From: Callorhinchus milii
Lineage: Eukaryota
Reading direction: 5' to 3'
DNA length: 64,000 nt
NCBI RefSeq assembly: GCF_018977255.1
Contig: NW_024704742.1
Coordinates: forward strand, 97,094,001-97,158,000
Positions 12,801 to 49,433 of the stretch are shown piece by piece. The position numbers and the translations under genes were made by a program. How positions within the stretch are numbered: the stretch's first letter is position 1; every line of letters begins with the position of its first letter. The notes beneath the pieces were generated by a model. It made no database searches and was not told the origin of the DNA. It saw only the letters and a program-made list of their open reading frames with translations.

Positions 12801-14091
12801 AGCACCAAGGAGATACCACTTAATCATAGAAAAACTGGGGGTGAGGTGGGGGACCAAGAGAGAGACAGAGGGGCTATCACAGTCTAATATCTTTGTGGCG
12901 ATATACCTCATAATGGAAGAAGTATTAATTTGTACTCCCAACTAATTATGAGATGATCTATTTTCCTCACTTTTTTCCCTATCTACAGTGGGGCTGGTCT
13001 CGGTTACCATTGTTAACAGGTCTCTCTCTACTGTACAGTATTAAGAAGTCAATTAAAAAGACTGACGTACATGACTCATAAGAATAGTATCGTTAAGTGT
13101 GTACATGGTTTAATAAGGATCAAAAAGTAGATTGAAGAAAAACTGCAACAACCAGAGATGATCCAAAGATCTAAATCAGCACTTTACTCTTGTATTCATA
13201 CCGTCATTATTTGTTATAGACTGCTATGTCTATTGAGCATCGATTTTATATATTTTATAAGCACAAAGCTGGATCCAGTTCCTTTTGTGCATGTGGGATC
13301 CGTAACCACACCAACCCCCCTAAACAAACACACACCACAAGCGGTTATATGTTCCGAGACACTGCCTCTTGTGAAGGGCGCTGTATAATTGCAAGTTGTT
13401 GTTCATCTTTTGCCCTTGGGCTTGAGTTCAGCCCTTCACTCACAGTCCTTTTCCTTTAAGGAGACAAGAATGATGTTTTCAATAAACACAGTTTCTGTGC
13501 AATGCTGCTGTAATTCTCTCGCAGAAGCAAATCAGTTGATGATGGTCTGGTGGCAATTATTTGTCAGTTTGTTGCTGCTGATCATGATTCCCAATGCTAC
13601 TGTTGAAAGTAGTTTAAAGACTGACTTATTGCGACTTATTGGAGCATAATCATAAGTGGAAAGCTATTAACAGACTCTAATGGTTACATTAGCTTCACAT
13701 TTCTAGTCTTATTTTAAAATATGCAAAAGTATCTATTATGTGCCTTACTTGAGTCTTTTCAGAATTACTGTCAATACAATGCAAATTAACATGTATTTAC
13801 CTTTCAAGATAACAGTACTGTAGTACATTTTTTAAAATAAGAATAATGAAGAACAATGGGCTACATTATGTGAGGTAGATCAGGATGATCTTTGGACCTA
13901 TATGTAGTACTGAAATGGCAATCAATATGTGTTGAAAGAAAGGGTGCTTAGCACCTAACTTGTTTCCCATGCGTTTTGAAATATTCACTTAAAAACATTG
14001 ATCAGATGAACAGAATGTTTTGTTCAGAGACGTTTACTGTATCAGCAATTTGCCTGTGTGATTTTGCGATACACAATTTTGTTTTTCACAG

Positions 14092-14246
14092 GAAAACGGT
14101 CATATGGTCCGAGAAGTGGAAGTGGACAAAGTGTGCTTGTTCGCTACAAAATATGTGGAAGCAGTAAAACAATTATGGAATGACCCTGGGATCCAGGAGT
14201 GCTACGACAGGCGAAGAGAATACCAGCTGTCTGATTCCGCCAAATA
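14092..14246 (+). CDS. GNA14: G-alpha-14 coding exon 3 (155 nt)
   Basis: tttttcacag|GAA...AAATA|gtaagt; [51 protein letters not shown](Y), Gq-family helical domain. Confidence 0.95.
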
Positions 14247-16783: not shown

Positions 16784-18866
16784 GTATGGGAACTGGCTGC
16801 TTGTATTTAGTCCACAAACTTTTGTAACAAAGAGGTTGCCTTGACAAAATAATCATACTGTCAAAAGTTGTGGCAGTATCTCATAGTGATGTGACATCTG
16901 ATGGGCATCATTGAGAAGCTGTGCAGCACTGTACAGAGGATATAGATAACTTGCATGTAAGACATATGCCAATTAATTTGACTGCTCTACATTTCTCATT
17001 TTCAACTTAATATCTTCGAACAGATGGCAATGAATATGGAGCAGAAGGAGATGACTCCAAGGTTACTCTGGACTTCAGAAGTTCAGTTCAAGGAGTGTTG
17101 ATTTGCATTGTATCTTGAGGTCCCTACAGGAATAATTTTTGTAGACTGTTAAAACTTGTCTGGCTGCTGAGAGGATCCTCATCTGGTCCTTGTGGAATAG
17201 CTTGCTTATCTCAGTGCTGTCTTACTCATGCCATGTCTTGCACCAGCTTGCAACGACTGTCCCTCCAGTGAAAGGGTTGATATGCCCAAGGTTCTCTTGA
17301 GTGGCGTGCTTTCTCCAGACTGCTAGTGCTAAGTGATAAAAAGCAGTTGTTTCATAAATGAAGCCGCTTGTAGCTAATAACAAGGCATAATGCCCTATTT
17401 AGTTCATGCCCAGAAAAAAATCTGCATAAAAGCCCATACCAAAATAAACAAACAATATTTTTGATACAAGACTAAAGAGATAATCACCTGGAGGTGAAAC
17501 GTCAGCATAACCCTGACCATAATCCAGTATCAGTAAAATTATCGAAGCAGCTTGTGTTTGCAAACAAATCATGTGCACTTTGAATTACTTGGCTTTGATT
17601 AGAATGGTGTCTAGGCTTGCAGCTCCAAAGCAAATTGTCCTGCGTTGAATGTAGTGTGAATGACACAGCCTTGATCCTTATCTTTCAAACCATAGTGCAT
17701 ATGAAATTGATTGGAGGTGGGGAGATTCAAGTGCAACAAAGGGAAATGCTTTTATATTTGGAAGGAGACCCATTGTTATGCAGTTAGTTTTCTCCACATT
17801 AATCAAATTCTGGCAATAAACGTTCATGCTCTGCACCTGCTGTTTATAAAGCACTGGGGTGAAAAATGTCATATGACTGTTATCATTCTGTAATAATAAT
17901 CCTAGCATATTTCATGTCAGGAGGATGTCCCAAAGCACTTACATGATTTACTATGAAGTAGAGTGACTATGTTTGTGGGCGAACACAACAGTCAATTTTG
18001 CGTACTGTAATTAGTCACCAACTTCAAAATTAGTCGCTGTTTGTGGGCCATTGCTGTCATAAATTGGCTGCCACATTTACTAATAAAATTCACAGTCAGA
18101 CCACTTTACAGTATATTTTGTGAAGGGCTTTGAGAGATCTCGATGATGTGATAAGGCGCTACATGAAATGCAAGGATTATTATTTAATTATTATAAGATC
18201 TCACTCAGAAGGAACAAACGGTATCAGGCGTACAAATGTAAAATATACTGTACAGTAGGAGATGCTCTTCTGAGCTTTTGGAAATAGAAGAGGAAGCTTA
18301 ACCCTTTATCTAATCCATGCTACACCTGATCTACAAGCACTTGATGCTGACACAGCATAATATAGTATAGTAGAGCTGTTACAACATGATAGTTGGGGGG
18401 GGTGGGGGGATGGTCTATAAATTCATTCAACGAACACTATAATGGGGATGAGTCTTCACTTTTACATTCACAGTGCGTACACACAGAAAGCTGGCTCACT
18501 TCAAAATGAAAGCCATTAGAACAGGTTTATAATGGACATGATATGTTCTGTATATGGTATTTCATTTCAGTGCTAATATCCCCCTGATTTTGATTACCAA
18601 AAGGGAGATAGCATCCACATTAGTTTTATTCATGCTTTCAGAAATGTGTGAGGGATGCTTATTAAAACCTGCAGTGTTGAAAGTGAAAGCAATATTTGAC
18701 TCAAAGGCTATCAAGAATTAACTTTAGCAGGATTCTATTTGTGCTTTATGTCATTCAATATATTGAACAATTTGATTTAATCAGTGAATAATTCATGCTG
18801 TGCTGATTGATTTTTTACCCTGTTTGGATAGTGGATCAGGAAATATTCATTTGGTTTACTTTGCAG

Positions 18867-18996
18867 AATGGTAGATGTTGGAGGTCAAAGGTCTGAAAGA
18901 AGAAAGTGGATTCACTGTTTCGAAAATGTCACCTCAATTATTTTCTTAGTTGCACTAAGTGAATATGACCAGGTCTTGGCTGAATCTGATAATGAG
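18867..18996 (+). CDS. GNA14: G-alpha-14 coding exon 5 (130 nt), switch II/III
   Basis: tttgcag|A...GAG|gtgagg; [48 protein letters not shown] motif. Confidence 0.97.
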
Positions 18997-19482
18997 GTGA
19001 GGATTTATTGGAATTGCTCTAATACAAACAATAGACTTTTTTTTACATAGAAGGGAGCCATTCACTGTTTTTCTAAGTTTTTCTAAAATTAATTCCTATT
19101 TCTAGTTCTTTTCCCATTGCCCTTAATGTTTTTCCGTCTCGAGTCCTTATCCAGTTCCATTTTGAATGATTCTGTTGGTGGGAATTACACACCCTAGCAA
19201 TCAAGCTTCTGAGTGAACAAATTCATTCAGCACCTTGGGATGTCCTCCCAACATAAAAGGCACTACATAAATGCAATTTGTTGTTCTAATTTCATCCCTA
19301 ATTTTCTGCTAAGAATCGTAAACCTTTGCCTCCATGCCATCATTTTTCCCAACTAAAGGAGTTGTTCCCATTTGTCTTGTCCTACCTCTTTACAATCCTT
19401 AACACCTCTATCACATCCCCACTCAATCCCCTTTATTGCAGTGGATAAAAAACCTAATTTAGTCAGTCTCTCTTCATATATG

Positions 19483-30336: not shown

Positions 30337-30370
30337 CTAGGAAGTAAGAATATCAAGAATATTAATTGAA

Positions 30371-30800
30371 ATAATAATAATTATTATCGCATTTGATATG
30401 TCCCACCTTTCACATCAGGAGGATGTCTCAAAGCGTTTCATAGGATATACTGTAAAGTGTAGTGACTGTGTATTTTGTAGACAAACTCAGCAGCCATGTG
30501 ACAGAGAGCAATGTCCCACAAACAGCCGTGAAGTGAATGACCCAATTTTATCTGGGGGATTCTTGGCCAGGGCACTGGGAGAAACTCCCTTCTTTTCAAA
30601 TTGTGCCACAGGACCTTTAACTCCACCGGAATGGCAGATGGGACTTTGGTTTAACATCTCACCTGAAAGATGGCATCACCAATAATGCAGCTCTCCACCA
30701 GCACTCTATTAGAATGTCATTCTCGTCTGAGTTCAAAATGGGGCTTAAACCCAGAGCCTTCTCGCTCACAGGCAAGAGCATTACCAACTGAGCTAAACAA
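30371..30800 (-). mobile_element. Deu-domain (AmnSINE1/SacSINE1-like) tRNA SINE; further degraded copies at about 1-290(-), 4875-5140(+), 5870-6065(+), 55500-55880(-)
   Basis: on -: tRNA head, ATGCCATCTTTCAGGTGAGATGTTAAACC...GGCACAATTTGAAAAGAAGGGAGTTTCTCCCAGTGCCCTGGCCAA, L2-like tail; resembles the Deu domain as recalled. Confidence 0.75.
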
Positions 30801-31387
30801 GCATCAAGTTCAAACTTGTATCAGATAGTGTACACGCATTCAAGAGGCTAGACCTTCACATGATGGAGAGGGCAATAGAAGGGTATGGGAAAGAGTAAGG
30901 AATGAAGACTCATGTGGAGTATAAACACTGGTATGGATATGTTTCTGTGCTCTACATTCTTTGTAAATCTTTCTAACATTTTGAGTCTGCTCATGTATAC
31001 ATAAACTAATGTCTTTAATTTGTCATTGCATGCTTTCGACCTATATCCACTCCCCACCTCATCCCACTGGCACTTGTTGAAATTCCTACAAGTTTCTGCA
31101 TTGAGTTCCACTTCATCTTTGGCAATTAACAAACTTAACTCACCCAGTCTGGTCATCTCTGATTTCAATGTATTCCTTTCCTCCCTCAATCTGAGCCCCC
31201 ACACAAACTCCCTGAACCCAATTCCATAGTTAACCTCCTGATGTAACACCTTTATACCATGGTCCTGTCCTCTGGAACACTCCTCTAAAATTAATTTTCC
31301 TTGCTACCTCTCTTCCTCCTTTTAAAAGTTAATGTTAGTATCTCCTAGGTACCCACCTTCAACCATACATTCGGCCACTTTTAAATG

Positions 31388-31757
31388 ATAATAACCCTCG
31401 CATTTGATACAGCGCTTTATCATGTCTTTGAGACGTCTCAAAGCACGTCAGAGAATATAATGTAAAGTTAATTGACTGTATATATTGTGGGCGAAACATG
31501 GCTGCCAATTGCACACAGCAGCGTCCCACAACCAGTCGTGGTTTGAAGTGACCAATTTATTATTATTTTTTTGAAAGAATTATTACCCCCGAAAAAGTGA
31601 TCCGCCAATTGACTAACAACTGGGTTCCTACTTACTGCTAGGTAAACTGAGGCGTGTGGAGTAAGGAAACTTGCCCATCATTTTGCCCTGCCGGGAATCG
31701 AACCCAGGTATCTCACTTGCGAGGCGAGTGCTCTAGCCACTGAGCTACAGGACTTCA
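31388..31757 (-). mobile_element. Same SINE, long variant with complete CORE-like segment
   Basis: head, GGGCAAGTTTCCTTACTCCACACGCCTCAGTTTACCTAGCAGTAAG, then tail. Confidence 0.88.
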
Positions 31758-32014
31758 AAATCCTTTTGCTTCTTGTTCAGTGTCTACTGTTGCCATTGTT
31801 AATTGCTATTTTTTTTGTATCTGGCAGAGTCTTGGTTTTCTTATACTTAATTTGGGTGTGCAGAATTTATTTATGTGTCTGACTCACTTAAGAGAGAGAA
31901 AAAGCAGGTAATACTTCTAAAGAAAGTTAGAGACGAACCCTAACCTTATTTGTGTTCTTGGCTTCACCACTCATAAATAATTTTACACATTAAACTCAAT
32001 AATGCAGTATTTAC

Positions 32015-32089
32015 CTTTGCGTCACTTCCACATCTGAAATTGACTATTTTTCCACATTCTTTTGCGTGAAACACAGACTTGACACGCTC
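32015..32089 (-). CDS. VPS13A: VPS13A exon 72 equivalent (75 nt), PH-like domain
   Basis: ERVKSVFHAKECGKIVNFRCGSDAK; ag/gtaa boundaries. Confidence 0.95.
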
Positions 32090-32704
32090 CTTTAAGAAAT
32101 TATACAGAATGTTAGTTTAGAATCAGTTGAAAAATAATTTATTACATTCAATTTACCAACAGTGATAAATTAATCTGGGTAATATTTTTCCAAGTAAAAT
32201 TACTAGCAAAAATTGCTGTTGGAGCTTTTTACAAAAAATATAAAATAATAAAATCATAATGTAAAATAGTAGAGGTAAAATCTGTGACATAACAAATTGA
32301 AGTCAATTTACATAATCCTTGCTTTCTGATTATTTTAACTATGTATATTGCTAAAAATAAATACTTTATTCTATATTCTCGTCACTTACTTTGGCCTCAA
32401 TACCAAACCTTATAATAACTAAAGACAACCCAAGTTGCTGCTCATTGACAGATCAGTTAAGATATGCCTCTTAAATAACTCAAATAGATGAAAACAAATC
32501 ACAATTAGGAATAAAAAAAGGCAATGATTTAGGGTTATGTTTAGACTTATGCACAGGTTGGATATTGGAAGTTATTCTACCACATTCAACAAACAAAATG
32601 GACTTATATATAACTAGACAACAATTGTATTACATTTAGCAAATTGATCAGAATAACCTTCCCATGAACTGAAATAAAGTGGTTTTGTACTTATTCTATT
32701 GAAA

Positions 32705-33541
32705 TATGGAATTGGCAGATGGAATATAATGTGGGAAAGTGTGAAGTTATTCACCTAGGGAGTAAAAACAGAAAAGCAGATTATTTTCCAGAAGGGGAGA
32801 CTAGATAGTGTCAGTGTTCAGAGGGATTTGGGTGTCCTTGTACACCAGTCATAAAAAGTTAGTATGCAGGTACAGTAAGCAACTAGGAAGGCTGATGGCA
32901 TGTTGGCGCTTATTGCAAAAGGGTTAGAATACAAGAGTAGGGAAATCTTGCTGCAACTGCATAGGGCCTTGGTGAGACCGTATCTGGAATATTGTTTGCA
33001 GTTTTGGTCTCCTTACTTAAGAAAGGACATACTCGCCTTAGAGGGGTGCAGCGTAGATCCACTAGGTTGGTTCCTGGGATGAGGGGGTTGACCTATGAGG
33101 AAAAGTTGAGTAAACTAGGCCTATATTCTCTAGAATATAGAAGAATTAGGGGTGATTTTATAGAAGCATACAAGATTCTTTTGGGGCTTGACAGAGTAGA
33201 CAGTGCAAGACTATTTCCCCTGGTAGGAGAATCTAGAACTAGGGGTCACAGTCTTAAGATTAAGGGTCAACCCTTTCGAACAGAGTTGAGGAAACCCTTC
33301 TTCATTCAGAGGGTAGTGAATTTATGGAATTCTCTACCCCAGAAGGCTGTAGATGCTCAGTCCTTGAACATATTCAAGACTGAGATTGATAGGTTTCTAA
33401 AGGATAGAGGGATTAAGGGATATGGTGATAAGGTGGGCAGATGGAGTTAGGTTAGAAGATCAGCCATGATCTCATTGAATGGCAGGGCAGGCTTGAGGGG
33501 CTGAATGGCCTACTCCTGCTCCTAAATCCTATGTTCCTATA
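32705..33541 (+). mobile_element. CR1 LINE 3' portion
   Basis: LVRPYLEYCLQFWSP, LYSLEYRRIRGD and RVVNLWNSLP peptides; 3' end gaatggcctactcctgctcct followed by cctatgttcctat. Confidence 0.93.
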
Positions 33542-33761
33542 TCTTACAACTTTTATTTCAACATTTTCCATTCCTGAACCAATCACCAAAGACTATTCTG
33601 AAATTACTGTTAGAACTTTTTACTAAAAGCAAAATCTGTAATAAAACAAGTAGATTTATTCCAGTCAATTTACACCACATTTTCCTTTCTTGTTATTTTA
33701 ACTTTATATATTACTGAAAAGACATACGATTAGAAATAACTGCTTTATCTTTGTCAATTAC

Positions 33762-33885
33762 CTTGGCCTCAATACGCAATCTTCTTTCCAAAACAATGAA
33801 AGGCTTCTTAGTAAATTCCTCAAAGCTGTACTGCCACTCACAGGTTAACTGCCCAAATGTTCCTTTTGTTACAAAAAAGACACCA
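33762..33885 (-). CDS. VPS13A: VPS13A exon 71 equivalent (124 nt), PH-like domain
   Basis: (S)GVFFVTKGTFGQLTCEWQYSFEEFTKKPFIVLERRLRIEAK. Confidence 0.96.
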
Positions 33886-34054
33886 CTGGAAAAATAAACA
33901 GAATAAATACAAAACATTTAAGAGATGGGACAGAACTATTAAGCACAATTTTGTTTAATCTTTTCAGTAATTATAGATATTCAAATAATAGCCAATAACA
34001 TTTCATTACCAGGACATTTCTGTAATTTGCTTTCTAAATTCACTGAAATCTTAC

Positions 34055-34140
34055 CTTTTTGTAATCATGAACAAATCTGAATCATTAACCTTTTTATGGG
34101 CGAAGTACTTGTACTTGGCAAACCTGCCATTTTCAATTTT
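34055..34140 (-). CDS. VPS13A: VPS13A exon 70 equivalent (86 nt)
   Basis: ttgttttag|AAA; KIENGRFAKYKYFAHKKVNDSDLFMITK; gtaag donor. Confidence 0.95.
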
Positions 34141-36739
34141 CTAAAACAAAAGACAAAATGTTAAAATATATGTTGAAATAAACTATTTCCCCTTCAGCTG
34201 CATTTTAAAATTTTAACATTTTAAAAACACATATTGCATTAGAAACACAAGAAAGTTTACACCACACAAGTTAAAGTCTACTCCACACGACCAGTACAAA
34301 GTGATTAACAGATTTGTCTTTAAAACCTTAAACCTGCTTGGCTTAGATTTGTTTTACCACTTTGCCTCAACAAACAAATGAAGAATTGATGATACAGGTT
34401 CTGATAGTATTTTTGTTCTCATAGTGACGCAAAGCACTAGTGAAGTCTGCTTACTCAGGTGGAAGCAACTCTTGTTATATGATTACACAAAGCAAAAATG
34501 GAGCAAATCTCATATCTAGGAACAAATCGTGCCCCTAGGTGAAAGAGGCAATATGAAATTGAGTACCTCAATGGTTATATTGACCAGATTTCAGCCTTAA
34601 ATCATAAAAATTCTTTCTTCGGATGAAGAGAAAACAGTTACTTCTGTATGGAAGGTATGTTTAAAGCTGATACCAATGTAGAAACACCAATGATGGATCC
34701 TTGTTTCTTTGACCATCCTTTCTAAAGGAGGCACCATGCTCTAAAATCTACTAGAATAATGATTGAGCTTGTTAACATTCTTAAAAATAAGCAGATACAT
34801 ATTTGTAGAAAAAAAACTGCATTTTTCTTTAGCTGATCCTGGCAATGATACCAGGAAGGATTTTAGTACATTGGACAAATATTAAACCCCAAATTGCAAG
34901 AGATTTGTAATACTTAATGTAGCCCAAGTATTGGATAATTGAATCTGCTTTTGATATAATGTCAAAAAATGCACTAGATCCAGTTTGTTTAATACTGGAT
35001 TTTCTATATCACATTACACATCAGCTGAAAGAAGAAGCTCATTTTGCAGACTATGTTCAGTATGTATTTTCTATTATACAGCTTTCAACAAGCATGTATC
35101 TAACTCCTGTTTGATATTAAAAGAAAATTTCCTAAGAACAAAGAAGCTTTAGTTGTACTAAGGTTACGAGTAACACAAATAATTGCACCATACCAACATA
35201 CTATTTTCAGCAGATATGAGTACTGCAAAGCTAATCAACAGAAGTAACCCGAATGTTACCTGAAGTATTTCTATATATACATTTTTTTAAAACTTAAAAG
35301 CTCATATCTAGATATGTACTACTCTGATAACAAATGTTAACTTGTTGCATCTAGTTAACTGCAGAAGGCACATTATCACAGTGGAATACTTTTAGTGATA
35401 CACAATGTACTTTGATGTTTACCAAGGATTACTGGCAACAACTTATACTGCAACATATTTTTATTTCCTGAATTATGTACTCCTGAAGGTAAGGTACTTA
35501 TAATGGCACAAAATGAACACTCATTTTACACACCGATTATCATTATCAATCACTCCCAGATCAAGTACAGCACAGTAAAATAACCAATACTCTGCCCCTC
35601 TTTAATCTGCCCCAGAAATGTCCACCAGCCCCAATTTATTAAGAGCTACCACTACAGGAAAATGACAATTTTCAACAAATTATTCCAATCCATGCTAAAT
35701 TCAGGATAATTTTACACCGAGTCCATGCTCATTAAAAACAGGATTGATCTTGCCCAAGTTAACCTGCAATTCCAATAAGCTTTTCTCTGCTGAATTGCTT
35801 TTATACTGGTGGAACTCTGAGCCAAAATTGTAATTACATTAGAAAACAACCTAGATATGTCCCTAATGTTCTGGGAGTTGAGTAAATTTACCAATTTATC
35901 CAATAATACATTGGTTTTATTGTGAATCCCTCTATTTTGAATATGGGCCTACGGTGAATAGTTTAACTCAGGATGTAATCTACTTGATCCATGCCTCATT
36001 GATTTTAGGATTAACACAGAAAACTAATTCATTGGATACTTGGTGACATTACTGTAATGCGATGAAGCATTGGCATTATTGGGTGGATGATCCAACAGAG
36101 ACAAATCTGACACTTTTCACAAGGAGTATGAGGGCTAGTTCTCAAAAAAAGTGGTTAAGTTGTGGAAGGAGCACTATTATGCTTTAAACCAGTGTTTTGT
36201 TTTACTTTGAATGCAACATAAAGAATCACTCCTTATCACTTCTCCAATAAAATGAATGACTTTTCTCAAGATATCAGGTTTCTTTTAAATAAAAGGCAAA
36301 TCTCAATATTTCTAAGATTGAGGCATCTTTCTGGAGTAGCTCTTTCTCAATTCCACTCCTTGGTTCTATGACACTTAGAATTATTGTATGTATTTCATCC
36401 TAATTTATTTTGTGCCTGGAAGTTTCACTCTCTGGGAGTAATTTTTCTTAGCTGGCTTCCTAGAGTTGAATTTGTAACCAGTGATAAAGGGAAAATAAAT
36501 TTGATTGATGCTTGCAACATTTCACTCTATATTTAGCAAGCATATTACCTCCCATCATGATTGGCCACTAAATTCCTATTATCTTGCTACCAGGGAAACC
36601 CAATTTTGGGATTGAGATGGGTAACAATAATGTATCCAAGTCAATCAAGTACGATCATAGTCATGAGACTTTGTGTTCCGGTCAAAATTGAATTATTATA
36701 AAGCTATGCTTTGATTCCAAAAAAATTCATTGTCTGCAA

Positions 36740-37750
36740 CAAAATTACAGTTGTATAGCACCTTTCACGTTGGGAGGACATCCCAAGGCGCTGAACAGAC
36801 AAGAGTTTCGGACCGAGCCGGGGAGTGTGGAGGGCAGGGGGGGAAAAGCAGGGAGTTCGAAAGCAAGGTTGAAGAGGAGGGTCTTGAGATGGGTTGTGAA
36901 GGAGGCAAGGGAGGGGGTGAGGCGAGGGACTGTGGGATGGAGTTCCAGAGGGTGGGGGCAAAGTGGCAGAAGGCCCACCCGCCAATAGTGGGGTAGGCGA
37001 GGCGGGGGATGTGAAGCAGGCTGGAGCTCGTTGAGTATAGGGAGCGGGCAGGATGGTAGGGGGTAAGGAGGTCGCAGAGGTAGGGGGGAACAAGACCATG
37101 GAGGGCTTTGAAGGTGAGGACCAGGATCTTGGACTGTATCACCACTGTGTGGAGTCCTGTAGCTCAGTGGTTAGAACACTCGCTTTGCAAGCGAGAGACC
37201 TGAGCTCAATTCCAGGCAGGGCGAAACCTTGGGCAAGTTTCCTTACTCCATACGCCTAATAATTCTGTGCGCAATTGGCTGCCGCGTTCGCCCACAAATA
37301 TAGTCAATTCACTTTACAGTATATTCTGTGAAGCACTTTGGGACGTCTAGAAGACGTGAAAAGCGCTATATCAAATACAAGGATTATTATTATTATTAAT
37401 AATCCCTCCAAAACAAAATAATAAATGGGTCATTTTCAATCTGTTTGTGGGACATTGCTGGGCGCAATTGGCTGCTGCGTTCGCCCACAAATATACAGTC
37501 GATTCACTTTACAGTATATTCTATGAAGCGCTTTGAGACGTCTAGAAGATGTGAAAAGCACTATATCAAATGCAAGGATAATTATTATTATATCCTCTGT
37601 GTGATGGGAAGCCAGTGGAGTTGGGCAAGGCTGGGGGTGATAGGGTCGCGGAGCCTAGTACAGAGCTCTGAATGATCTGCAGCCTGTGGAGGGAGTTGGG
37701 AGGGCAACAAGCAATGAGTTTGCATAGTCGAGCCTTGATGCATACTGACG
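36740..37750 (-). mobile_element. L2 LINE 3' fragment interrupted by a SINE
   Basis: KILVLTFKALHGLVPPYL peptide; L2 sequence resumes at about 37590. Confidence 0.88.
37151..37590 (+). mobile_element. SINE with tandemly duplicated 3' half, inside L2
   Basis: one tRNA head and two consecutive body-plus-(TTA)n tails. Confidence 0.88.
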
Positions 37751-39734
37751 ACTGTAATTTTGTGAAGTGCTTTTCAACTGATTTGCTGAATTGCTGCCAA
37801 GACCAAATAACAAATTGGCGCTGTCGTCAGCAGCAATCTGAATTAAATGGTGTTCTTGTAAAAAGATCTATTCTCAGTCACATAGAAGTTAACCCAGATC
37901 GCATTTTTTGTGCAACAAGTTTTCTTCCCTTATAAAAGGTGGCAACTTGAGCTGGTATGGCCCCTTGGATTGGTTTCTGCCAGTGTTTCACACAACAGTG
38001 AGCATCAAGAGGCTCTTCTACCACAGTGCTGCTGGTGTATATAATAATAACCCTTGCATTTGATATGGCACCTATCACATCATTGAAACGTCTCAAAGAG
38101 CTTCACAGAATATATTATAAAGTGGATTGACTGTACTTTGTGGGCAAAATACGGCAGCCAATTGCACACAGCAGTGTCCCATAAACAATGGTTGATTAAG
38201 CGACTTTTCTTTAAAGGGATTATTACTCCCAGAAAGCGATCTGCCAATCGACTAACAATCGCGTTCGTACTACTGCTATACGTATTCACAAGTGTAGAGT
38301 TTTGCCTCATATTGGATAAACTAAGAGCACTATTTAAGTGAGGAAATATTTAAAATATTTTATTCAGGTCGTCTTTATACCTAAACATCAATGCACAACC
38401 CTGGATACTAGTACTCAATAGTTGAATGGCCCAAATATAACATATTGAAGCAAATACTGTAATGTGTGTGCATGAAATTTATGTGTGGAATTTATCATTA
38501 TCAGAGTAGAATTTCTTTCTATTGTGCTCTGTTTTCAGTTATTTAATGGCTTTGCATCTGGATGAGTTGATTTTATAATTTACAGTAAACAAACATTTCG
38601 AACTAAATTGAATTGCTGAGCCCTCTTCCTTATTCAAATTTTATGAGGTAATCAACCAGTGTAACATTTGGAACCATGACTATTTCTGAAGTAGAGGTCG
38701 CAGAGAGGCTATGTCCAGCCTTCAGAAAACCTGGATGTTGAAGACATCAAATATCGTAAGAAGTGGGTCACGTTGGATTTTAATGAATGGTGTGGACTCA
38801 TTATCTTTATCCTTCTCTCTGCCAGTCAGTTTCCAAACTACATCCTCTGTACCTGACTGATGTCAAAGAAGACATATGATACCAAATTTAAACTGTGCAA
38901 TATTGTTAGTGTTTCTGATAAATTAATAGCTGCAAAGGCCTGGATACTATTATCCCAGAAGAGATGAGGAGCTCTCTTTAGCGCTCTGGGACGCTACCCC
39001 GCATGAAGGGCGCTATATAAATGTAAGTAGTTATTGTTTAGCTGTATATCTGGGGTCGGCGAAAGTCTAAGATTAAGCAACATAAAGAAAAATTAATGCG
39101 GTGGGAAGGCAAAGAGAGACACACACACACTCTGTCTAAGACAAGGTGAATTAAAAGGGGAGGAAGCTACTCTTTAACCCCGCAGAATCTTGCCTGAAAT
39201 ACAAGGCTCAGTGGTAACCAAACTAATGGGTAAAAAGGTATCAAACGAGTGTCTGTGCCGAAACATGCAATATCCATAGACACAATTTGCTTAGAGTAGG
39301 TGTATTGGACCCTCAAGTTCTAAAGAAAGAGTGAGTCATCAATACTTGGCATTACAAAGGGATGACAATCATCAGTACCAACCTGCTTAAGTTAATTTAA
39401 ATCAGTTGATGTACTAGTAGGAGCTCCACTACTTTCAACTAAAATATAGTGATAGGTTCACAAAGGAATGACGACAATCAGACTCAGTAATTGTCATCAG
39501 ACTCAGTGATTGCTAAACAGTTACTTCTGGAACATGGTCCTCACTATTACTAGTTATCAAACTAGCCTTCTGTGCAACAGCCAGTGCTGACTCACCATGG
39601 AGCCATTTTTCAGGATCTGTTGTTGATTGGCCAGTGCCGTTTAAGATTTTGGTGATTGAAATGAGAATCATCAGTAAAACTTAATGGAATAAAATACATT
39701 ATTAACTCTGAAAAAGAGAGGTTAAAAATACCAC

Positions 39735-40230
39735 AATAATTTACATTGACATGGCACCTTTGTCAGGACATCTCAAAGCGTTTCACACAGGTTACTGCAG
39801 CCAGTTTGGTGGTGATGCTGGGTGAAGGCCCAGAGGAAAGCGTCTGAAAGTGCTGTTGGGTTTTAAAATGGGCTTAAAGGTGGGAGGAGAGGAGCAAAGG
39901 GGAGTAACTCTGTGATGGAGTTCCAAGGAGTGCTAAGAAATTTTTGGAGTTCCAAGAATGCTTGAAATTCCAATAAGCAGACGGCTGAAAGCTCATCCAC
40001 TGATTGGGGTATATTGGATGGAGACAAACCGGTGGCAGCTGAGCAGCCACATGCAGAGTTAGTATTGTGCAAGGCCATGGAGGGATTTGAACATGAGGAG
40101 AAGGATCTTTTGAGTTTGATTGGCTGGGGGATATGAAGCTAGTGAGGATGGCAGTGATAGATGTGGAGTCTAGTGCAAGAGAAGACATGGGCTACAGAGT
40201 TCTCGATAGTCTGCAGCCTGAGGAGAGAGG
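39735..40230 (-). mobile_element. Old L2 3' fragment
   Basis: degenerate L2 tail and residual similarity to the other copies. Confidence 0.6.
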
Positions 40231-41299
40231 ATATATATTAATAATCTTTGCGTTTGATATAGTGCCTTATCACATCTTTGAGATGTCTCAAAGGACTTTA
40301 CAGAATATACTGTAAAGTGAATTGACTGTATACTTTGTGGGTGAAATGCAGCAGCCGATTGCGCACAACAGTGTTCCACAAAAAAATTGTGGATTGAGTG
40401 ACCAAATTATTATTATTTTTTCTGAAGGGTTTATTGCCCCAGAAAAGCGATACCCCAATCGACTAAGAATCTATATACCCTCATGTTTAAAAGAAGAGTC
40501 CAAGTAACCTAGACAGAGCTTTTGATTTCAATAACTTTCCTTAGTTTAATATAATTTCCACAGCAACCGACGTTTCATTTAAACTCGATTTACAATTAAC
40601 ATTGCAGTGTCCCTTTAATTGTTATTATAGACACATTTATCAAAATAGCTATTTGTGATTAGTGGTTTGTAATTCAACTTTATATTCAAATACAACATTT
40701 AGAACACAACTGTCAATACTCACATGCACTTGAAGCATGATGTACAGGAAGCTGCTGCCAATGTTAATGCATGCATATTACCTTTTAGCTTTTTAGAAGG
40801 CGAGACAGACAGGGATGGAAAAATGGAAAAACATGCTTTTTATTCTTTACTGCAACATCTTCTATGATTATTTAGTTTGCTTTCCACAATACCCCCACCC
40901 TCCCCCACCCTGTTCGAGGTCAGAAAGGAAAGGCTAACTGCAAAATGCAAAATATACAATATATTATTACGTAAACCAAAATGATTAAATCATTAATCAC
41001 TGTTAGATGTATTCAATATTCAATGTTTTACACTGCAATTATATTTTAGACTTGATTTGCAGTGCAAAGATCCATATTTTAGATTGGCCTGAGTCCTTGT
41101 AGATTGCAGCCAGGAAGAGGGTGTATTGTCACACAATGGCTTAAGAATGCACAAGCTAAAATATTGAAAATTCTTGAAAAACAAAGGTGTCAATGCAGTA
41201 CTAGAAGAAAAAATAATTTTACAAAAGACATGGGATCAACCCCAACAAGTCATGCAATATTGAATGCAAAGAATTCTGCAAATTCTGTACCTTGGGATA

Positions 41300-42110
41300 T
41301 TTAAAATAGCACAAGATCTGTTTTGAATGAAGAATGCTTTTCAGCCCATTTGATCTCATCCTTCCAGAATACTTACACTAGCATCCTCCCATCACAGCAT
41401 CATGTTGTTTTTTCAATAAGTGAAGTGCACTGGAATACCTGACCTCATTTTTCCTTCTTGGTAAACTGTTTCAGTCATTAATTACCCTCTGGGTACAGAA
41501 ATACTTGGTGTCTGTCCTGAAACTGCCATTTCCTACCCTGAATCTGTGCCCATGTTTTGCTGCCATATCTTTGCATAACTGAAAGTATTGTTTGGGGTTT
41601 ATTTTCCCAAACCCATTTAACATCTTAAAATACCTCTATGAGTTTCCCTCTGAGACATCTGTTTTCAAGGCTGAAGAATCTTAACTTGTCTAATCATTGC
41701 TCATTCCTCTAACACTGATGATTATTCTTGCATCATCAGTTTGTGATGTCACATAGCTCCCTCAGCAATTTGGGATGTCAACTTGTTAAAAACATCTATG
41801 AAGTTGGTCAGAGATCTCCTCTTCTGTGGTTTAGACTTATTGCTTAGATTATTTTATTCTAATAATCTTCCATTTTCTTTCTGATGATTGAGTTCATCAG
41901 TTTTTAAAACTATTGAGGTCAGACTAATGGGTCTGTAGTTGACAGGTATGGCCCCTATCAACCTTTCGTGAACATGGGAACCACATTTACTTGCTTCCAA
42001 TTTGTTGGAACTTCACTAATTGTGATCAACTGCCTCATAATGTCTAACAGTGCTTCACAAATCACAATTTCAGCCTCTTGGGCCTATCTAGACACTCAGT
42101 TGCATTTATG
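41300..42110 (-). mobile_element. Old degraded CR1 fragments
   Basis: residual NYRPISLT on - at about 41915-41940 and CR1-like 3' sequence. Confidence 0.55.
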
Positions 42111-42125
42111 TAAAAAGTCCTGGAG

Positions 42126-42222
42126 TTTAAACAATGGGCAGCATTATGAATTTAAACATTATGGGCATTTAAACATTATGTTTAAATTAAACATTAAACA
42201 GCATTTAAACATTATGGGCAGC
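42126..42222. repeat. Degenerate minisatellite of tttaaacattatg(ggc) units
   Basis: about 5 imperfect copies. Confidence 0.8.
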
Positions 42223-43025
42223 AGCTTTTTAAGTGTCCTATCTGGTAGAAAAAAAACCTCCAGGAAGTAGTTATTTAATATCACGTGCTGCAAATTGTTC
42301 ATTTTCAGGCATTGAGTCTGCGGAAATGCAGTTATGTTTTAAGGTCCATTTTATATATAATGCACGCAGCAAGTAAAATTAAATCTAAAAGATCAGTTTG
42401 TAACATGTTAAAATAACAACTGGACCTACTAACAACAGTCTTCAAGAAGGATGAAATCTTTGTACTAAAAAACCAACTAAATAAATTACTGATCAGTAAT
42501 GAATTTTGAAAGATTGTACTCTTCCAAGAGCTAAAACCATCTAAATATTAAGGGGGGGAAAAGCAGTCACAACTTTGTTTGGTTTAATTAAACTAATATT
42601 TTAGTTTTAGGAGGGAAAGTAGCATTTCCTAAGGGTTCAAGTGGCTCCAAGGAGATGTCTGGGGAAGACAAGATGTGTAAATTGTTGAGATCAACCATTT
42701 TTTCTGACTCATCACTGAGTTTAGGAAATGGGTCCTCAACCCTGCAAACAAGTAGGGCATTCCAAGGTAGGCAAATAACATGACATTTACTAGCACATCA
42801 TGTTGGTAAAATTGACAATTACCTACCTTAGACAGTAAAAATACAGTTACTGAATCATACCTCAATATCTATCCAGGTATTTAAAATTATTTATAAAAGC
42901 CACATTGTGCAGGCTTTAATTTATCAATTATTATTATGAATAAAAAGCAACAATGCAGAAATGCAAAAGGGAAGATTGAAGCAGTCCAATGAGTGACATG
43001 AACAGAACAGAAATTAGACAAAGCT

Positions 43026-43031
43026 TTTATT
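43026..43031 (-). terminator. Intronic poly(A) signal for the putative VPS13A alternative terminal exon
   Basis: AATAAA on - with upstream TGTA and downstream ttgtctaatttctgttctgttcatgtc GT-rich element. Confidence 0.5.
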
Positions 43032-43417
43032 ACATAACCTTCACAATTGTACATTTACCTGGAGTTCCTTATGCAAAGCAGAGATGAAATACAAGTTTCA
43101 TGAGCAACACATAACACTGAATTCAAAACAGCAATGGAAGACACAAGAATGATCTAAATTAAAAATGCATAGATGGGAGTAAACAAAAACTAGCAAAACA
43201 AAATTAATAAGTTCTATTCCTGCACTAAAATTATTTTCTGCAATATTTTCTTCTTTTCCTACATGTGATTTGTGCAACTTTTTAAAATTGAAAATATTCA
43301 AGAAAACTGATACCTTGTCTGTTGCTCTTTCTATGCCTATATATTTCCCAGTTTGGAACCTTGCAACTGAACAAAATCACAGAATGGTAGGACACTGCTA
43401 GGCAGTTTTATCGATGG

Positions 43418-43540
43418 CTAAGGCGGCAGATAATAGGAGCTATCATGAATGCATGCATTGGTGATAAGCAGCAATTTCATCAGATTAATCATCATCAACA
43501 CTACTGTCAACATAATCCTTTCTTTGCAGGCACTTCCATT
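43418..43540 (-). CDS. VPS13A: Putative alternative terminal exon of VPS13A (exon 69 / isoform-B-like), coding part
   Basis: branch-like aactaac, pyrimidine tract and ttgcag acceptor; NGSACKERIMLTVVLMMINLMKLLLITNACIHDSSYYLPP*; a shifted frame reads DSSVDDD*. Confidence 0.55.
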   Translation of the reverse strand, partial: NGSACKERIMLTVVLMMINLMKLLLITNACIHDSSYYLPP

Positions 43541-43747
43541 CTGCAAGCATGGTAAAGAGGGAAAGAAGATAGCTGGTTAGTTTTATTGCACCTTTGTGTG
43601 CAACCTTTCTTGAAAAAAGCAAGAAAAAGAATGCTGGTATCAATTTATAGACATTAATGATTAATAAATAAACAGTAAGCAGAGGTGAAACTTGCATGCT
43701 CAAAATTAAAACAGTACACTTATAATTATCAACTATAAATGAATCAC

Positions 43748-43862
43748 CTGCAACATTTGACTGCCAACTCCTTCTCTCAACCTATATGGTCTAATGACTC
43801 CGTCTTCATGAATAAATCTAGGGGGTCGAAGGCTCTGAGCATCTTCAGATGTTTCTGTAGCT
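43748..43862 (-). CDS. VPS13A: VPS13A exon 68 equivalent (115 nt)
   Basis: (R)ATETSEDAQSLRPPRFIHEDGVIRPYRLREGVGSQMLQ, RPPR motif. Confidence 0.96.
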
Positions 43863-45194
43863 CTGTCAAAATAATATTTTTTTAGACAATTGATGCAATT
43901 TAATCATTTGCAACAATTACATTGAAAATAAGAAATAAGATGATTTATAAAGAGTTTCACTTCAAAATGCCATCCAGTTCAGCTGGTACTTTAGAAACAA
44001 ACACTGCCTTCTAAATGAATGTCAAACTCTAATCATTTAACTAACAAGTTCAGCTTTTTCATACAGATAAATATTTGAGAAGTTTGGTTATCGATTCTGA
44101 ACCCAACCAATCATTTTCTTTGCTTTTCAATGGATCTGGCAGAACTGAAGTCAATTGATTTTCCTCTCAGGAGGAAAAAGTAATGGGATAAATGACAGAT
44201 GTTTGAGTCAGAGGTCCAGGAGTACTTTACCTGCCTCACCTTCTCAATTGAATAGTGAGTAATTACAGGAGAAGTAACATGGTATAATATGCCTACAAGC
44301 AATATCTCTATGGTTTCTAATTTGATAAATGCTGTTATGATTTATGCGATAAATTTTGCTAATGGAAAATTTAGTAGTTTGTACACACATTTCGGTACAG
44401 AAAAAGTCTGATAGTAATCCAAACATTTTCATATTGCAAATATTTGTACTGCTACTACAGAGTGATGTCTATTGTTTTACTTGTTCACCCTTCATTTCAT
44501 TTAATTCATACAAATCCATGCAAATTCAATATTCCGCTCTTTCATGTAAATACATTTTCAGCCATACCCCTACACTGTATCAACAGATACATTTATCCTA
44601 TAACATAATAATTATTACTCATATCACTAATACATTAGACTTTACTTTAAATACATTATGTATTCAGGAATAAAATAATAAATTCAGAATCTTATTTTGT
44701 TTAGCCTACATGGTGGAAAATAGTCTAAAATGTTCTCCCAATATGGCAACAAATCCCTTCTTCACCCAACCTAAATGTCTCTGTCTGGACATCTTCTAAA
44801 ATATGCTTACTTTCCAATGCTAATAGCATTATATCTGTGTACAATTTTGGTCACTATATTTCAGAGACTGGAGGACTTTTTCTGCTGGAATAAAGAAGGT
44901 TGAGGGATGACCTGGCAGAGATCTTTAGAATTATGAGAGGGTTTTTGATAGACAATAGGGAGAATTCATATTTACTGGTCGGTGAATCAGTCAACAACAA
45001 CAACAACTTGCACTTATATAGCGCCCTCCACACGGGGTAGCGCCTCAGAGTACTAAACAATGGCAGAACCTGACTCCGGGGTGGGGGGAAGTGGCTGTAA
45101 GCATGGTCGAAGAGGAAGGTAGGAAATAGTACCAGAGTAACTTCTAAACAAAAATCTGTCAATTAATTTTCATTCGTTCTTGTTCATATTTTAC

Positions 45195-48415: not shown

Positions 48416-49433
48416 CGATACTAAGCTGGAGGGAGGTGTGTAGGATGTCCCTCAGGAGTCGTTATTGGGACTACTGTTCTTTCTGATCTATGTTAATGAT
48501 CTGGACCTGGATATAGGGAGCATAATTTCCAAATTTGCAGACGACACTAAACTAGGAAAAGTAGTTAATGGTGAGGAAGATGGCACCAGACTCCAAGAGG
48601 ACTTAGACAAATCGGTAAAATGGGCAGAAACGTGGCAGATGAGATTTATTGTGGAGAAATGCAAAATGTTGCATTTTGGTAGGAAGAATGAAGAGAGGCA
48701 GTATAAGCTGATGGTACAATATTAAAGAGGGCAAATGAACAGACCTGGGGATCCACATAAGCAAATCTCTGAAGCTGGCAGGACAAGTAGATAAAGCTGT
48801 TAAAAAAGCATACGGGATACTAGGTTTTATAAATAGGGGCATATAATTCAAAAGTCAGGAGGTTATGTTGAATATTTATAAAGCACTGGTTAGGCCTCAG
48901 TTGGAATACTGCATTCAGTTCTGGGCACCGCACTTCAGGAAAGATGTTAGGGCATTGGAGAGTGTGCAAAGGAGGTTTACCAGGATGGTACCAGGAATGA
49001 AGGACATTAGTTATGAAGAGAGGTTAGCGAAACTAGGATTATTCTCCCTAGAACAGAGAAGATTAAGAGGGGATTTAATAGAGGTTTTCAAGATCATGAG
49101 AGGATTTGATAGGTTGAACCGGGAAAAACTGTTTCCACTGGCTGTGGGTCAGTAACCTGAGGACACCAATTTAAGATAGTTGTTAAAAGAAACAGAGGGG
49201 AGGTTAGGAATTTTTTTTAACCCAGCGAGTTGTTCGGATCTGGAATGCATTACCTGAAAGGTTAGTCGAAGCCGATTCAATAACAACTTTTAAGAGAGAA
49301 GTAGATGGATATTTGGGAAGGACAGGATTGCAGGGCTACGGGGAGAAAGTGGAATTGAGTTGGATTGCTCTTTTGGGAGCCGGTGCAAACGTGATGAGCT
49401 GAATGGATTCTTTCTGTGCTCTGTGATTCTATG
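48416..49433 (+). mobile_element. CR1 LINE 3' portion (second subfamily) nested in a SINE
   Basis: SKFADDTKLG and LVRPQLEYCIQFWAP peptides; gattctatga tail. Confidence 0.93.

Follow-up and report, generated by a model that had tools for sequence, protein, structure and literature searches.

An ancient VPS13A isoform-B exon with a frameshifted, predicted hydrophobic tail in Callorhinchus milii and sharks

The VPS13A gene of Callorhinchus milii contains an ancient alternative exon which sequence comparison identifies as real and as a variant of the known isoform-B exon. Isoform B itself and a set of unnamed RefSeq shark predictions were known already; what is new is the shifted hydrophobic tail that is common to the chimaera and the sharks. 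Our proposed explanation, to which we give slightly better than an even chance, is that this is the isoform-B exon of cartilaginous fish with its tail shifted into a hydrophobic frame and that, if spliced, it would give a VPS13A devoid of the PH domain and carrying a helix on or in a membrane. Loss of VPS13A leads to chorea-acanthocytosis. The matches listed by our literature search, which lay mostly outside subscription papers, included no paper on the evolution of exon 69 or on a hydrophobic VPS13A tail.

The locus and the alternative exon

The window (the whole stretch of DNA analysed, 64,000 nucleotides) holds the 3′ end of C. milii VPS13A on the minus strand, with 100% identity to the C. 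milii protein. The RefSeq protein P0252 (C. milii VPS13A) maps onto the minus strand in 20 pieces from 63996 to 30289 by tblastn and a junction check, in which 14 acceptors were resolved and five junctions were not. The following features, all on the minus strand, surround the exon.

43862-43748, minus strand: VPS13A common exon ending QMLQ (tblastn, junction check with P0252; spliced on both sides in X4 and X7)
43632-43604, minus strand: upstream pyrimidine tract and tandem AGs that would start the exon at 43608 (19 pyrimidines of 20) or at 43604 (15 of 20), possible minor acceptors
43581-43576, minus strand: branch-point-like ACTAAC, putative from sequence
43563-43541, minus strand: pyrimidine tract and CAG acceptor of the alternative exon (16 pyrimidines of 20 at positions -23 to -4)
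43540-43418, minus strand: alternative exon, coding part (exon-69 homologue), 40 codons plus TAG (43420-43418)
43457-43452, minus strand: TGCATG beneath the invariant NACIH, one of six copies in the intron
43314-43053, minus strand: candidate donors at 43314 (AAG/GTATCA, 6/9 consensus) and 43059 (8/9)
43031-42995, minus strand: candidate poly(A) site, AATAAA (43031-43026) then a GT-rich stretch; hexamer unchanged in organism B
34140-34055, 33885-33762, 32089-32015 and from 30336 (to 30289), minus strand: four exons of the PH-bearing end of isoform A (43748-to-34140 junction in X4 and X7)

The common exon, which we take to be exon 68 in human numbering, ends at 43748 and the PH-coding exon that follows starts at 34140, so that the intron between them is 9,607 nt long. 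The alternative exon is located in this intron, after the last common exon, with its acceptor 207 nt in, and joins QMLQ in phase 0. An earlier note, made from the letters alone, had placed an acceptor about 200 nt into a 9.6-kb intron and described the branch-like motif, the pyrimidine tract, the CAG at 43540 and the AATAAA at 43031-43026 with its GT-rich stretch; all of these are present, as are the two frames that it read, 40 residues in phase 0 after QMLQ and an acidic peptide in the shifted frame. The stop at 43418 comes before the PH exons, so the PH domain is removed from the predicted product, and the four PH exons are the part replaced if the alternative exon is used. The pyrimidine count of acceptor 43540 (16) falls within the 9–17 range of the 14 true VPS13A acceptors in the window. 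From the sequence we infer that this acceptor and the poly(A) signal at 43031 are used in C. milii. The UniRef model P0002 (C. milii) takes an AG at 43521 (7 pyrimidines of 20) and ends in KGLC, which is probably a modelling artefact.

TGCATG, presumably an Rbfox binding motif, is not rare here, since 19 copies lie on the minus strand of 27000-64000. Immediately ahead of the branch-like motif lies a second AATAAA (43587-43582, minus strand), where transcripts that used the upstream acceptors, or that ran on past the common exon, could terminate. Many short interspersed repeats (up to 17 copies in the window) and reverse-transcriptase-like fragments, presumably of CR1/L2 type, are found in introns, at 30361-40471, 32965-33447, 41917-42267 and 48847-49152, and 40500-44990 holds no sequence repeated within the window. 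Exons of a Gq-family G-alpha gene, by sequence and human synteny probably GNA14 as we take it, lie on the plus strand at 14062-14244 and 18832-19047, tail to tail with VPS13A.

Short VPS13A isoforms of sharks

The homology of this exon with the isoform-B terminal exon, which the earlier note had suggested, is settled at the sequence level by the shark isoforms. Eight of the 12 shark species retrieved (seven genera) have a RefSeq-predicted PH-less isoform that carries the shifted tail right after the common exon: Chiloscyllium punctatum, C. plagiosum, Hemiscyllium ocellatum, Heptranchias perlo, Carcharodon carcharias, Cetorhinus maximus, Mustelus asterias and Scyliorhinus torazame (examples are XP_067839211.1, XP_041042660.1, XP_060693957.1 and XP_072372729.1). 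The isoform is absent from the retrieved records of the other four, S. canicula, Pristiophorus, Heterodontus and Rhincodon. We take the eight species to span galeomorphs and squalomorphs. RefSeq alternative models normally rest on transcript alignments. The chondrichthyans retrieved were C. milii and sharks, and the records included no ray, skate, lamprey, hagfish or VPS13C isoform.

The shark tails are 41–46 residues long, and all eight share the register of acceptor 43540; their register and shifted frame are those of the C. milii exon, and the frame is open for 40–46 codons in the nine species. The C. milii frame is identical to the tail of Heptranchias isoform X3 at 21 of 33 residues (E 4e-12), and an alignment of seven sequences contains 19 invariant columns. 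Between the chimaera and four sharks the tail identity is 59–66% over 34 residues (65–70% for residues 15–34), compared with 69–71% for the whole protein and 77–79% for the PH region in the same pairs. In conservation the tail is roughly level with the protein as a whole, which, as far as sequences go, shows constraint on the protein or on the RNA. Sharks are not uniform in the last ∼10 residues or in where the stop falls, and C. milii differs from them there. The Pfam VPS13_C profile is matched over positions 1–29 of 114 in a shark short isoform versus 1–112 in isoform A.

While the shark short isoforms are annotated as predicted models, the C. milii tail is unannotated, is more hydrophobic and has another end. 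It also lacks the Trp that is kept by sharks and most bony tails (W8R, accompanied by N9I and R10M), which may be read as a sign of relaxed constraint on the head. Scored with the bony-vertebrate profile introduced below, the ten-residue shark heads (e.g. KGKACKEWNR) come out above every one of the 8,066 AG-started frames in the window, and they are near gar KRMACTQWIR and mormyrid KRRDCTEWNR. With their Trp kept and their top scores against the bony profile, they bridge C. milii to the bony vertebrates.

The one-base shift

Two further features define the shift.

43510-43509, minus strand: 1-nt shift relative to bony vertebrates (codon 11); a free-shift scan picks codon 11, -1
43508-43485, minus strand: acidic frame DSSVDDD plus TAA, out of phase with the acceptor

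The first ten residues encoded by the exon are in register with the acidic isoform-B tails, from bichir to primate, and the reading is shifted from codon 11. After the ATG (43513-43511) and 'tt' (43510-43509) the other frame reads DSSVDDD-stop-SD. The predicted product is thus hydrophobic and not a short acidic disordered tail, the acidic codons being present but out of phase, and on this account the exon is placed as a variant of the isoform-B exon and not as a plain member.

The shift is present in the genome itself, and chimaera and sharks share it. An assembly error as its cause was rejected: the contigs of X4 and X7 cross 43509-43510 without a gap, all 65 of 65 sampled words are present in three more runs, X1–X3 (same species label; one of these may be the window's own source) and sharks share the frame. 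The earlier note had raised the chance of a missing base at about 43510; the shift into a hydrophobic tail is real, and it is older and wider than that note thought, being common to sharks.

Organism B, a relative, aligns across 43151-43799, where it shows 51 substitutions and 41 gap letters, every gap being a deletion; of the substitutions, those outside 43409-43799 were read. Binned depth gives no deletion in 43498-43581 or 43414-43455, with full depth at 43498-43581. Inside the frame the sole indel removes 3 nt from the GAT repeat and keeps the phase. All three in-frame indels sit in the triplet repeat, where slippage yields triplets anyway. Outside the frame, nine bases are deleted at 43605-43619 and the GT of donor 43314 is changed, and the substitutions listed include none at 43059.

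The acidic frame is quite probably the older one, and the change a 1-nt deletion in the chondrichthyan stem. Four observations argue for this order: an Asp-codon repeat displaced by one base yields the M/T/V/L pattern of the tail; residues 11–22 of sharks require Asp in the acidic frame (at two places, or one in the shorter bamboo-shark form) and permit a stop at the position of the C. milii TAA; that TAA still closes the Asp run; and the tail of P0097, an Old World monkey record used in place of the human tail, runs on through ESD where the window has stop-S-D.

Splicing in C. milii

Contigs came from four of the 24 listed runs, of which X12 (organism C) gave only two short pieces. A search by sampled words listed no RNA run, a blank that is no evidence on expression. 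The contigs of X4 and X7 include spliced VPS13A in which 34140 directly follows the common exon (68-to-70 junctions only), and these contigs, which drop rare variants, show no joint or loose end at 43540, 43521, 43604/43608, 43314 or 43059. Nothing is drawn from them about use of the exon, because rare variants are dropped, depth cannot rank the parts and the tissue is unrecorded. X4 has one unspliced contig over the whole exon (42984-43777), from pre-mRNA or DNA, and X7 has two short contigs there.

We consider it rather unlikely that chimaeras seldom use the exon and are losing it while sharks keep it alive. Such decay would agree with three radical head changes in a row relative to sharks, with the absence of the 40-residue tail from the seven C. 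milii records retrieved (in RefSeq, P0252 is isoform A only) and with the lack of a junction into 43540 in X4 and X7. The acceptor, the branch-like motif and the frame are intact, however, residues 15–34 retain their identity to sharks and organism B stays in phase; moreover, contigs show presence and not absence.

An upstream acceptor at 43604 would restore the acidic frame, so that C. milii would still make an acidic tail. It follows a strong pyrimidine tract, its frame is open to DSSVDDD-stop and one X7 contig stops at 43605 with no loose end there. We nevertheless regard this as highly improbable: a stronger AG at 43608 precedes it in another frame, the nine-base loss in organism B falls here, and no acidic tail is present among the retrieved chondrichthyan records, just as no shifted tail is present among the retrieved bony ones. 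The upstream acceptor at about 43605, which the earlier note had mentioned, is thus not supported as the main route: the site is changed in organism B and the shark register matches 43540.

Nor is there support for the donor at 43314, which that note had offered for a cassette exon and at whose GT organism B differs. A cassette (poison) exon with a stop, joined to the PH exon that follows and subject to NMD, could still use donor 43059, which is good (8/9), has no change listed in organism B and has the stop at 43418 lying 359 nt ahead. The contigs have no loose end at 43314 or 43059, although absence is not provable there, an AATAAA with a GT-rich stretch follows, and human exon 69 is described as an alternative last exon (PMC9436381); a cassette exon is accordingly very unlikely.

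Comparison with bony vertebrates

The C. milii exon occupies the same intron position as exon 69 of human and mouse VPS13A variant B, in phase 0, and likewise replaces the PH exons. The products differ: the C. milii and shark tails have 40–46 residues and are hydrophobic and predicted helical, while the variant B tail is short, disordered and acidic.

Searches extending past the common exon gave 444 proteins, a sample of the best 120 of 403 and of 880 matches with at most 15 members per cluster. A rule-based sort gave 297 PH-type, 49 acidic and eight shifted ends, 51 intron read-throughs, 19 others and 20 that stop short of the junction. The rule missed four acidic tails seen by eye (P0050, P0094, P0121 and P0132) and included at least one doubtful case (P0141). 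The C. milii head is in register with the acidic tails of ∼50 bony-vertebrate records, which come from bichir, reedfish, sturgeon, paddlefish, gar, bowfin, teleosts, newts, tortoise, tuatara, echidna, marsupials and placentals. A B-type tail was not found in coelacanth (five records), frogs or the listed bird records, where annotation gaps are likely.

With a profile of 34 distinct bony acidic tails and a 1-nt shift at codon 11, site 43540 ranks first among 8,066 AG sites (17.9 versus 12.0), which together with the shark match bears out the homology. With the place and size of the shift left free it ranks first among 8,069 sites by a thinner margin (17.9 versus 15.6). The first ten codons alone rank 64th of 8,066 and the unshifted 18 codons 1,493rd, so that the link of the exon to bony vertebrates needs the shift. 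As the rank test was designed after seeing the site, has a thin margin when free and places the head alone 64th, it is only moderately strong. A second B-like match at 42366 was rejected since no AG precedes it. A profile search with the tail alignment in 1.84 billion representatives returned one match, an unrelated repeat protein, and no Pfam family matches the tail.

PMC6238376 gives the dates used here, ∼450 and ∼420 My for the jawed-vertebrate and chimaera–shark splits. Combined with the shared tails, they indicate that the exon predates the former and the shifted frame the latter. With bony-vertebrate and shark tails in register, the jawed-vertebrate ancestor most likely had the PH-less isoform already, as the earlier note had conjectured. 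The shifted tail has most likely been common to chimaeras and sharks for ∼420 My. Having been kept since that ancestor, the exon is unlikely to be noise.

The hydrophobic tail

43516-43460, minus strand: 19-residue hydrophobic run I9–T27, predicted helix (Kyte–Doolittle mean 2.29)

The best 19-residue Kyte–Doolittle windows reach 2.29 in C. milii, 1.83–1.93 in four sharks (bamboo, epaulette and sevengill) and 1.56 in four others, and soluble VPS13A reaches 1.73–1.81. Among 406 open AG-started frames on the minus strand of 30400-63800, two reach 2.29 and 37 reach 1.56. Hessa sums, calculated without the position term, are -0.3 for C. milii, +2.0 to +3.6 for sharks and 5.0–5.2 for the best windows of four full-length VPS13A proteins; on this scale the tails are more hydrophobic than every 19-residue window of those four proteins. 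AlphaFold2 predicts a single helix 2–37 for the 40 residues (seven sequences, pLDDT 82), a weak indication given that isolated hydrophobic peptides are often predicted so. The hydrophobic moment is 0.33 in C. milii and 0.41–0.53 in sharks, and with this low value the C. milii tail is not a clean amphipathic helix.

A tail-anchor segment has ∼17–22 residues and lies within ∼30 of the C-terminus. On simple scales the C. milii run fits this description, with 13 residues following to the C-terminus, and sharks are marginal or below. A true C-terminal transmembrane anchor is nevertheless unlikely in our estimation. It draws on the length of the C. milii run, its rarely matched Kyte–Doolittle score and its negative Hessa sum, on the three higher-scoring kinds of shark and on a salmonid run with a Kyte–Doolittle value of 1.97, a Hessa sum of -0.2 and eight residues after it; the four shark tails at 1.56, with sums up to +3.6, and the invariant Asn19 and Lys22 inside the run weigh against it. 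Being transmembrane-like in C. milii and marginal in sharks, the tail is more readily seen as a membrane-binding helix. That it binds a membrane we put a little below an even chance; a helix resting on the surface or inserted in part is then likelier than an anchor that spans the membrane.

The exon might also have been kept as RNA, for its splicing and 3′ UTR elements and solely to remove the PH domain, with the peptide a passenger or a BAG6/proteasome degron and inclusion lowering the amount of XK-binding VPS13A. The letters of the tail look dispensable, as tails are acidic in bony vertebrates, 6–9 residues long in other isoforms or hydrophobic; the invariant MINL lies across the old D-D-stop-S-D, as NACIH does across TGCATG. 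According to 10.1101/2022.07.20.500724, noncoding-derived tails are often hydrophobic by nucleotide bias and BAG6 captures them for degradation or membrane targeting. But the frame has stayed open for 40–46 codons in nine species over ∼420 My at protein-average identity, TGCATG is common in the window and the RNA fold of the exon is not unusual (z 0.86), so that we hold this explanation to be doubtful, though a serious competitor.

Pike and one salmonid copy have a PH-less isoform in which a hydrophobic run follows a kept acidic stretch and the head Trp is lost (P0437 Esox X6, P0375 Oncorhynchus kisutch X5 and P0084 Salmo trutta); other salmonid records have a plain acidic tail. In P0437, P0443 (Esox), P0375 and P0084 the run is rich in Leu, Met and Trp, lies 8–9 residues from the end and has Kyte–Doolittle values of 1.49–1.97. 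Because the acidic stretch is kept and the letters of the run are by eye unlike those of the chondrichthyan run, this tail probably has a separate origin. It fits either a repeated gain of an anchor or a default hydrophobicity of read-through sequence.

Proposed mechanism and related systems

Brain-specific 3′ variants of mouse VPS13A and VPS13C were reportedly described by Mizuno et al. in 2007. PMC9436381 describes human isoform B as lacking the PH domain and XK binding but remaining at ER–mitochondria contacts; it also reports that human ATG2-C suffices for mitochondrial binding and that isoform B is the main brain form in mouse and the lesser one in human caudate. By analogy, we infer neural expression of the C. 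milii isoform, loss of XK binding and retained ER–mitochondria targeting. Under the proposed explanation, splicing of the common exon to 43540, likely in nervous tissue, would yield a PH-less VPS13A; the one-base shift would swap the acidic end for a hydrophobic predicted helix, which would likely lie on or in a membrane beside the ATG2-C helices.

A bolder version, that the frameshift in the chondrichthyan stem turned the neural PH-less isoform into a tail-anchored lipid bridge, kept for 420 My and arrived at separately in the pike–salmon lineage, we think improbable. If true, the bridge would be fixed in the acceptor membrane without an XK or PH adaptor, as a VPS13 with a C-terminal membrane anchor, and a functional membrane anchor would have been born by frameshift of an acidic triplet repeat. 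The part of PMC7613979 accessible to us names no VPS13 with a C-terminal anchor. The bridge-like lipid transfer proteins that it lists with a transmembrane anchor, Hobbit and Tweek (BLTP2 and BLTP1), have theirs at the N-terminus, in contrast to the C-terminal run of chondrichthyan VPS13A. Closer is plant VPS13X, in which, by the same partial text, amphipathic helices replace the PH domain; the likeness lies in having helices instead of that domain and the difference in VPS13X being a separate gene and not a splice form. The acidic-to-hydrophobic switch means either that removal of the PH domain is what counts or that some lineages rewired membrane targeting via the tail, and it offers a dated natural case of new coding sequence from a frameshift.

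Other alternative ends in the same intron

Across vertebrates, as judged from the sequences, the intron after the common exon is host to several alternative ends. In pikeperch and climbing perch (P0088, P0099 and P0105) an extra piece of ∼16 codons lies between the common and acidic exons; its Trp/Glu pattern resembles the head of the acidic exon, and it is perhaps a duplicated exon. Very short PH-less tails of 4–6 residues follow the same junction in mammals (P0075, P0354, P0356 and P0363) and in Hucho (P0032). A second short shark isoform ends in a nine-residue tail (P0258, P0262, P0264 and P0286). An upstream acceptor as its homologue was rejected, the best match in the C. milii intron being at 35088, within 35103-35058 on the minus strand. 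There the match at 35088-35089 has four mismatches in 30 nt, against six at the next best site, and the AG at 35103 opens a nine-residue frame with a stop and comes top of 560 AG sites. The 35103 region may be a further terminal exon that leaves out the PH domain, ∼950 nt ahead of the PH exons.
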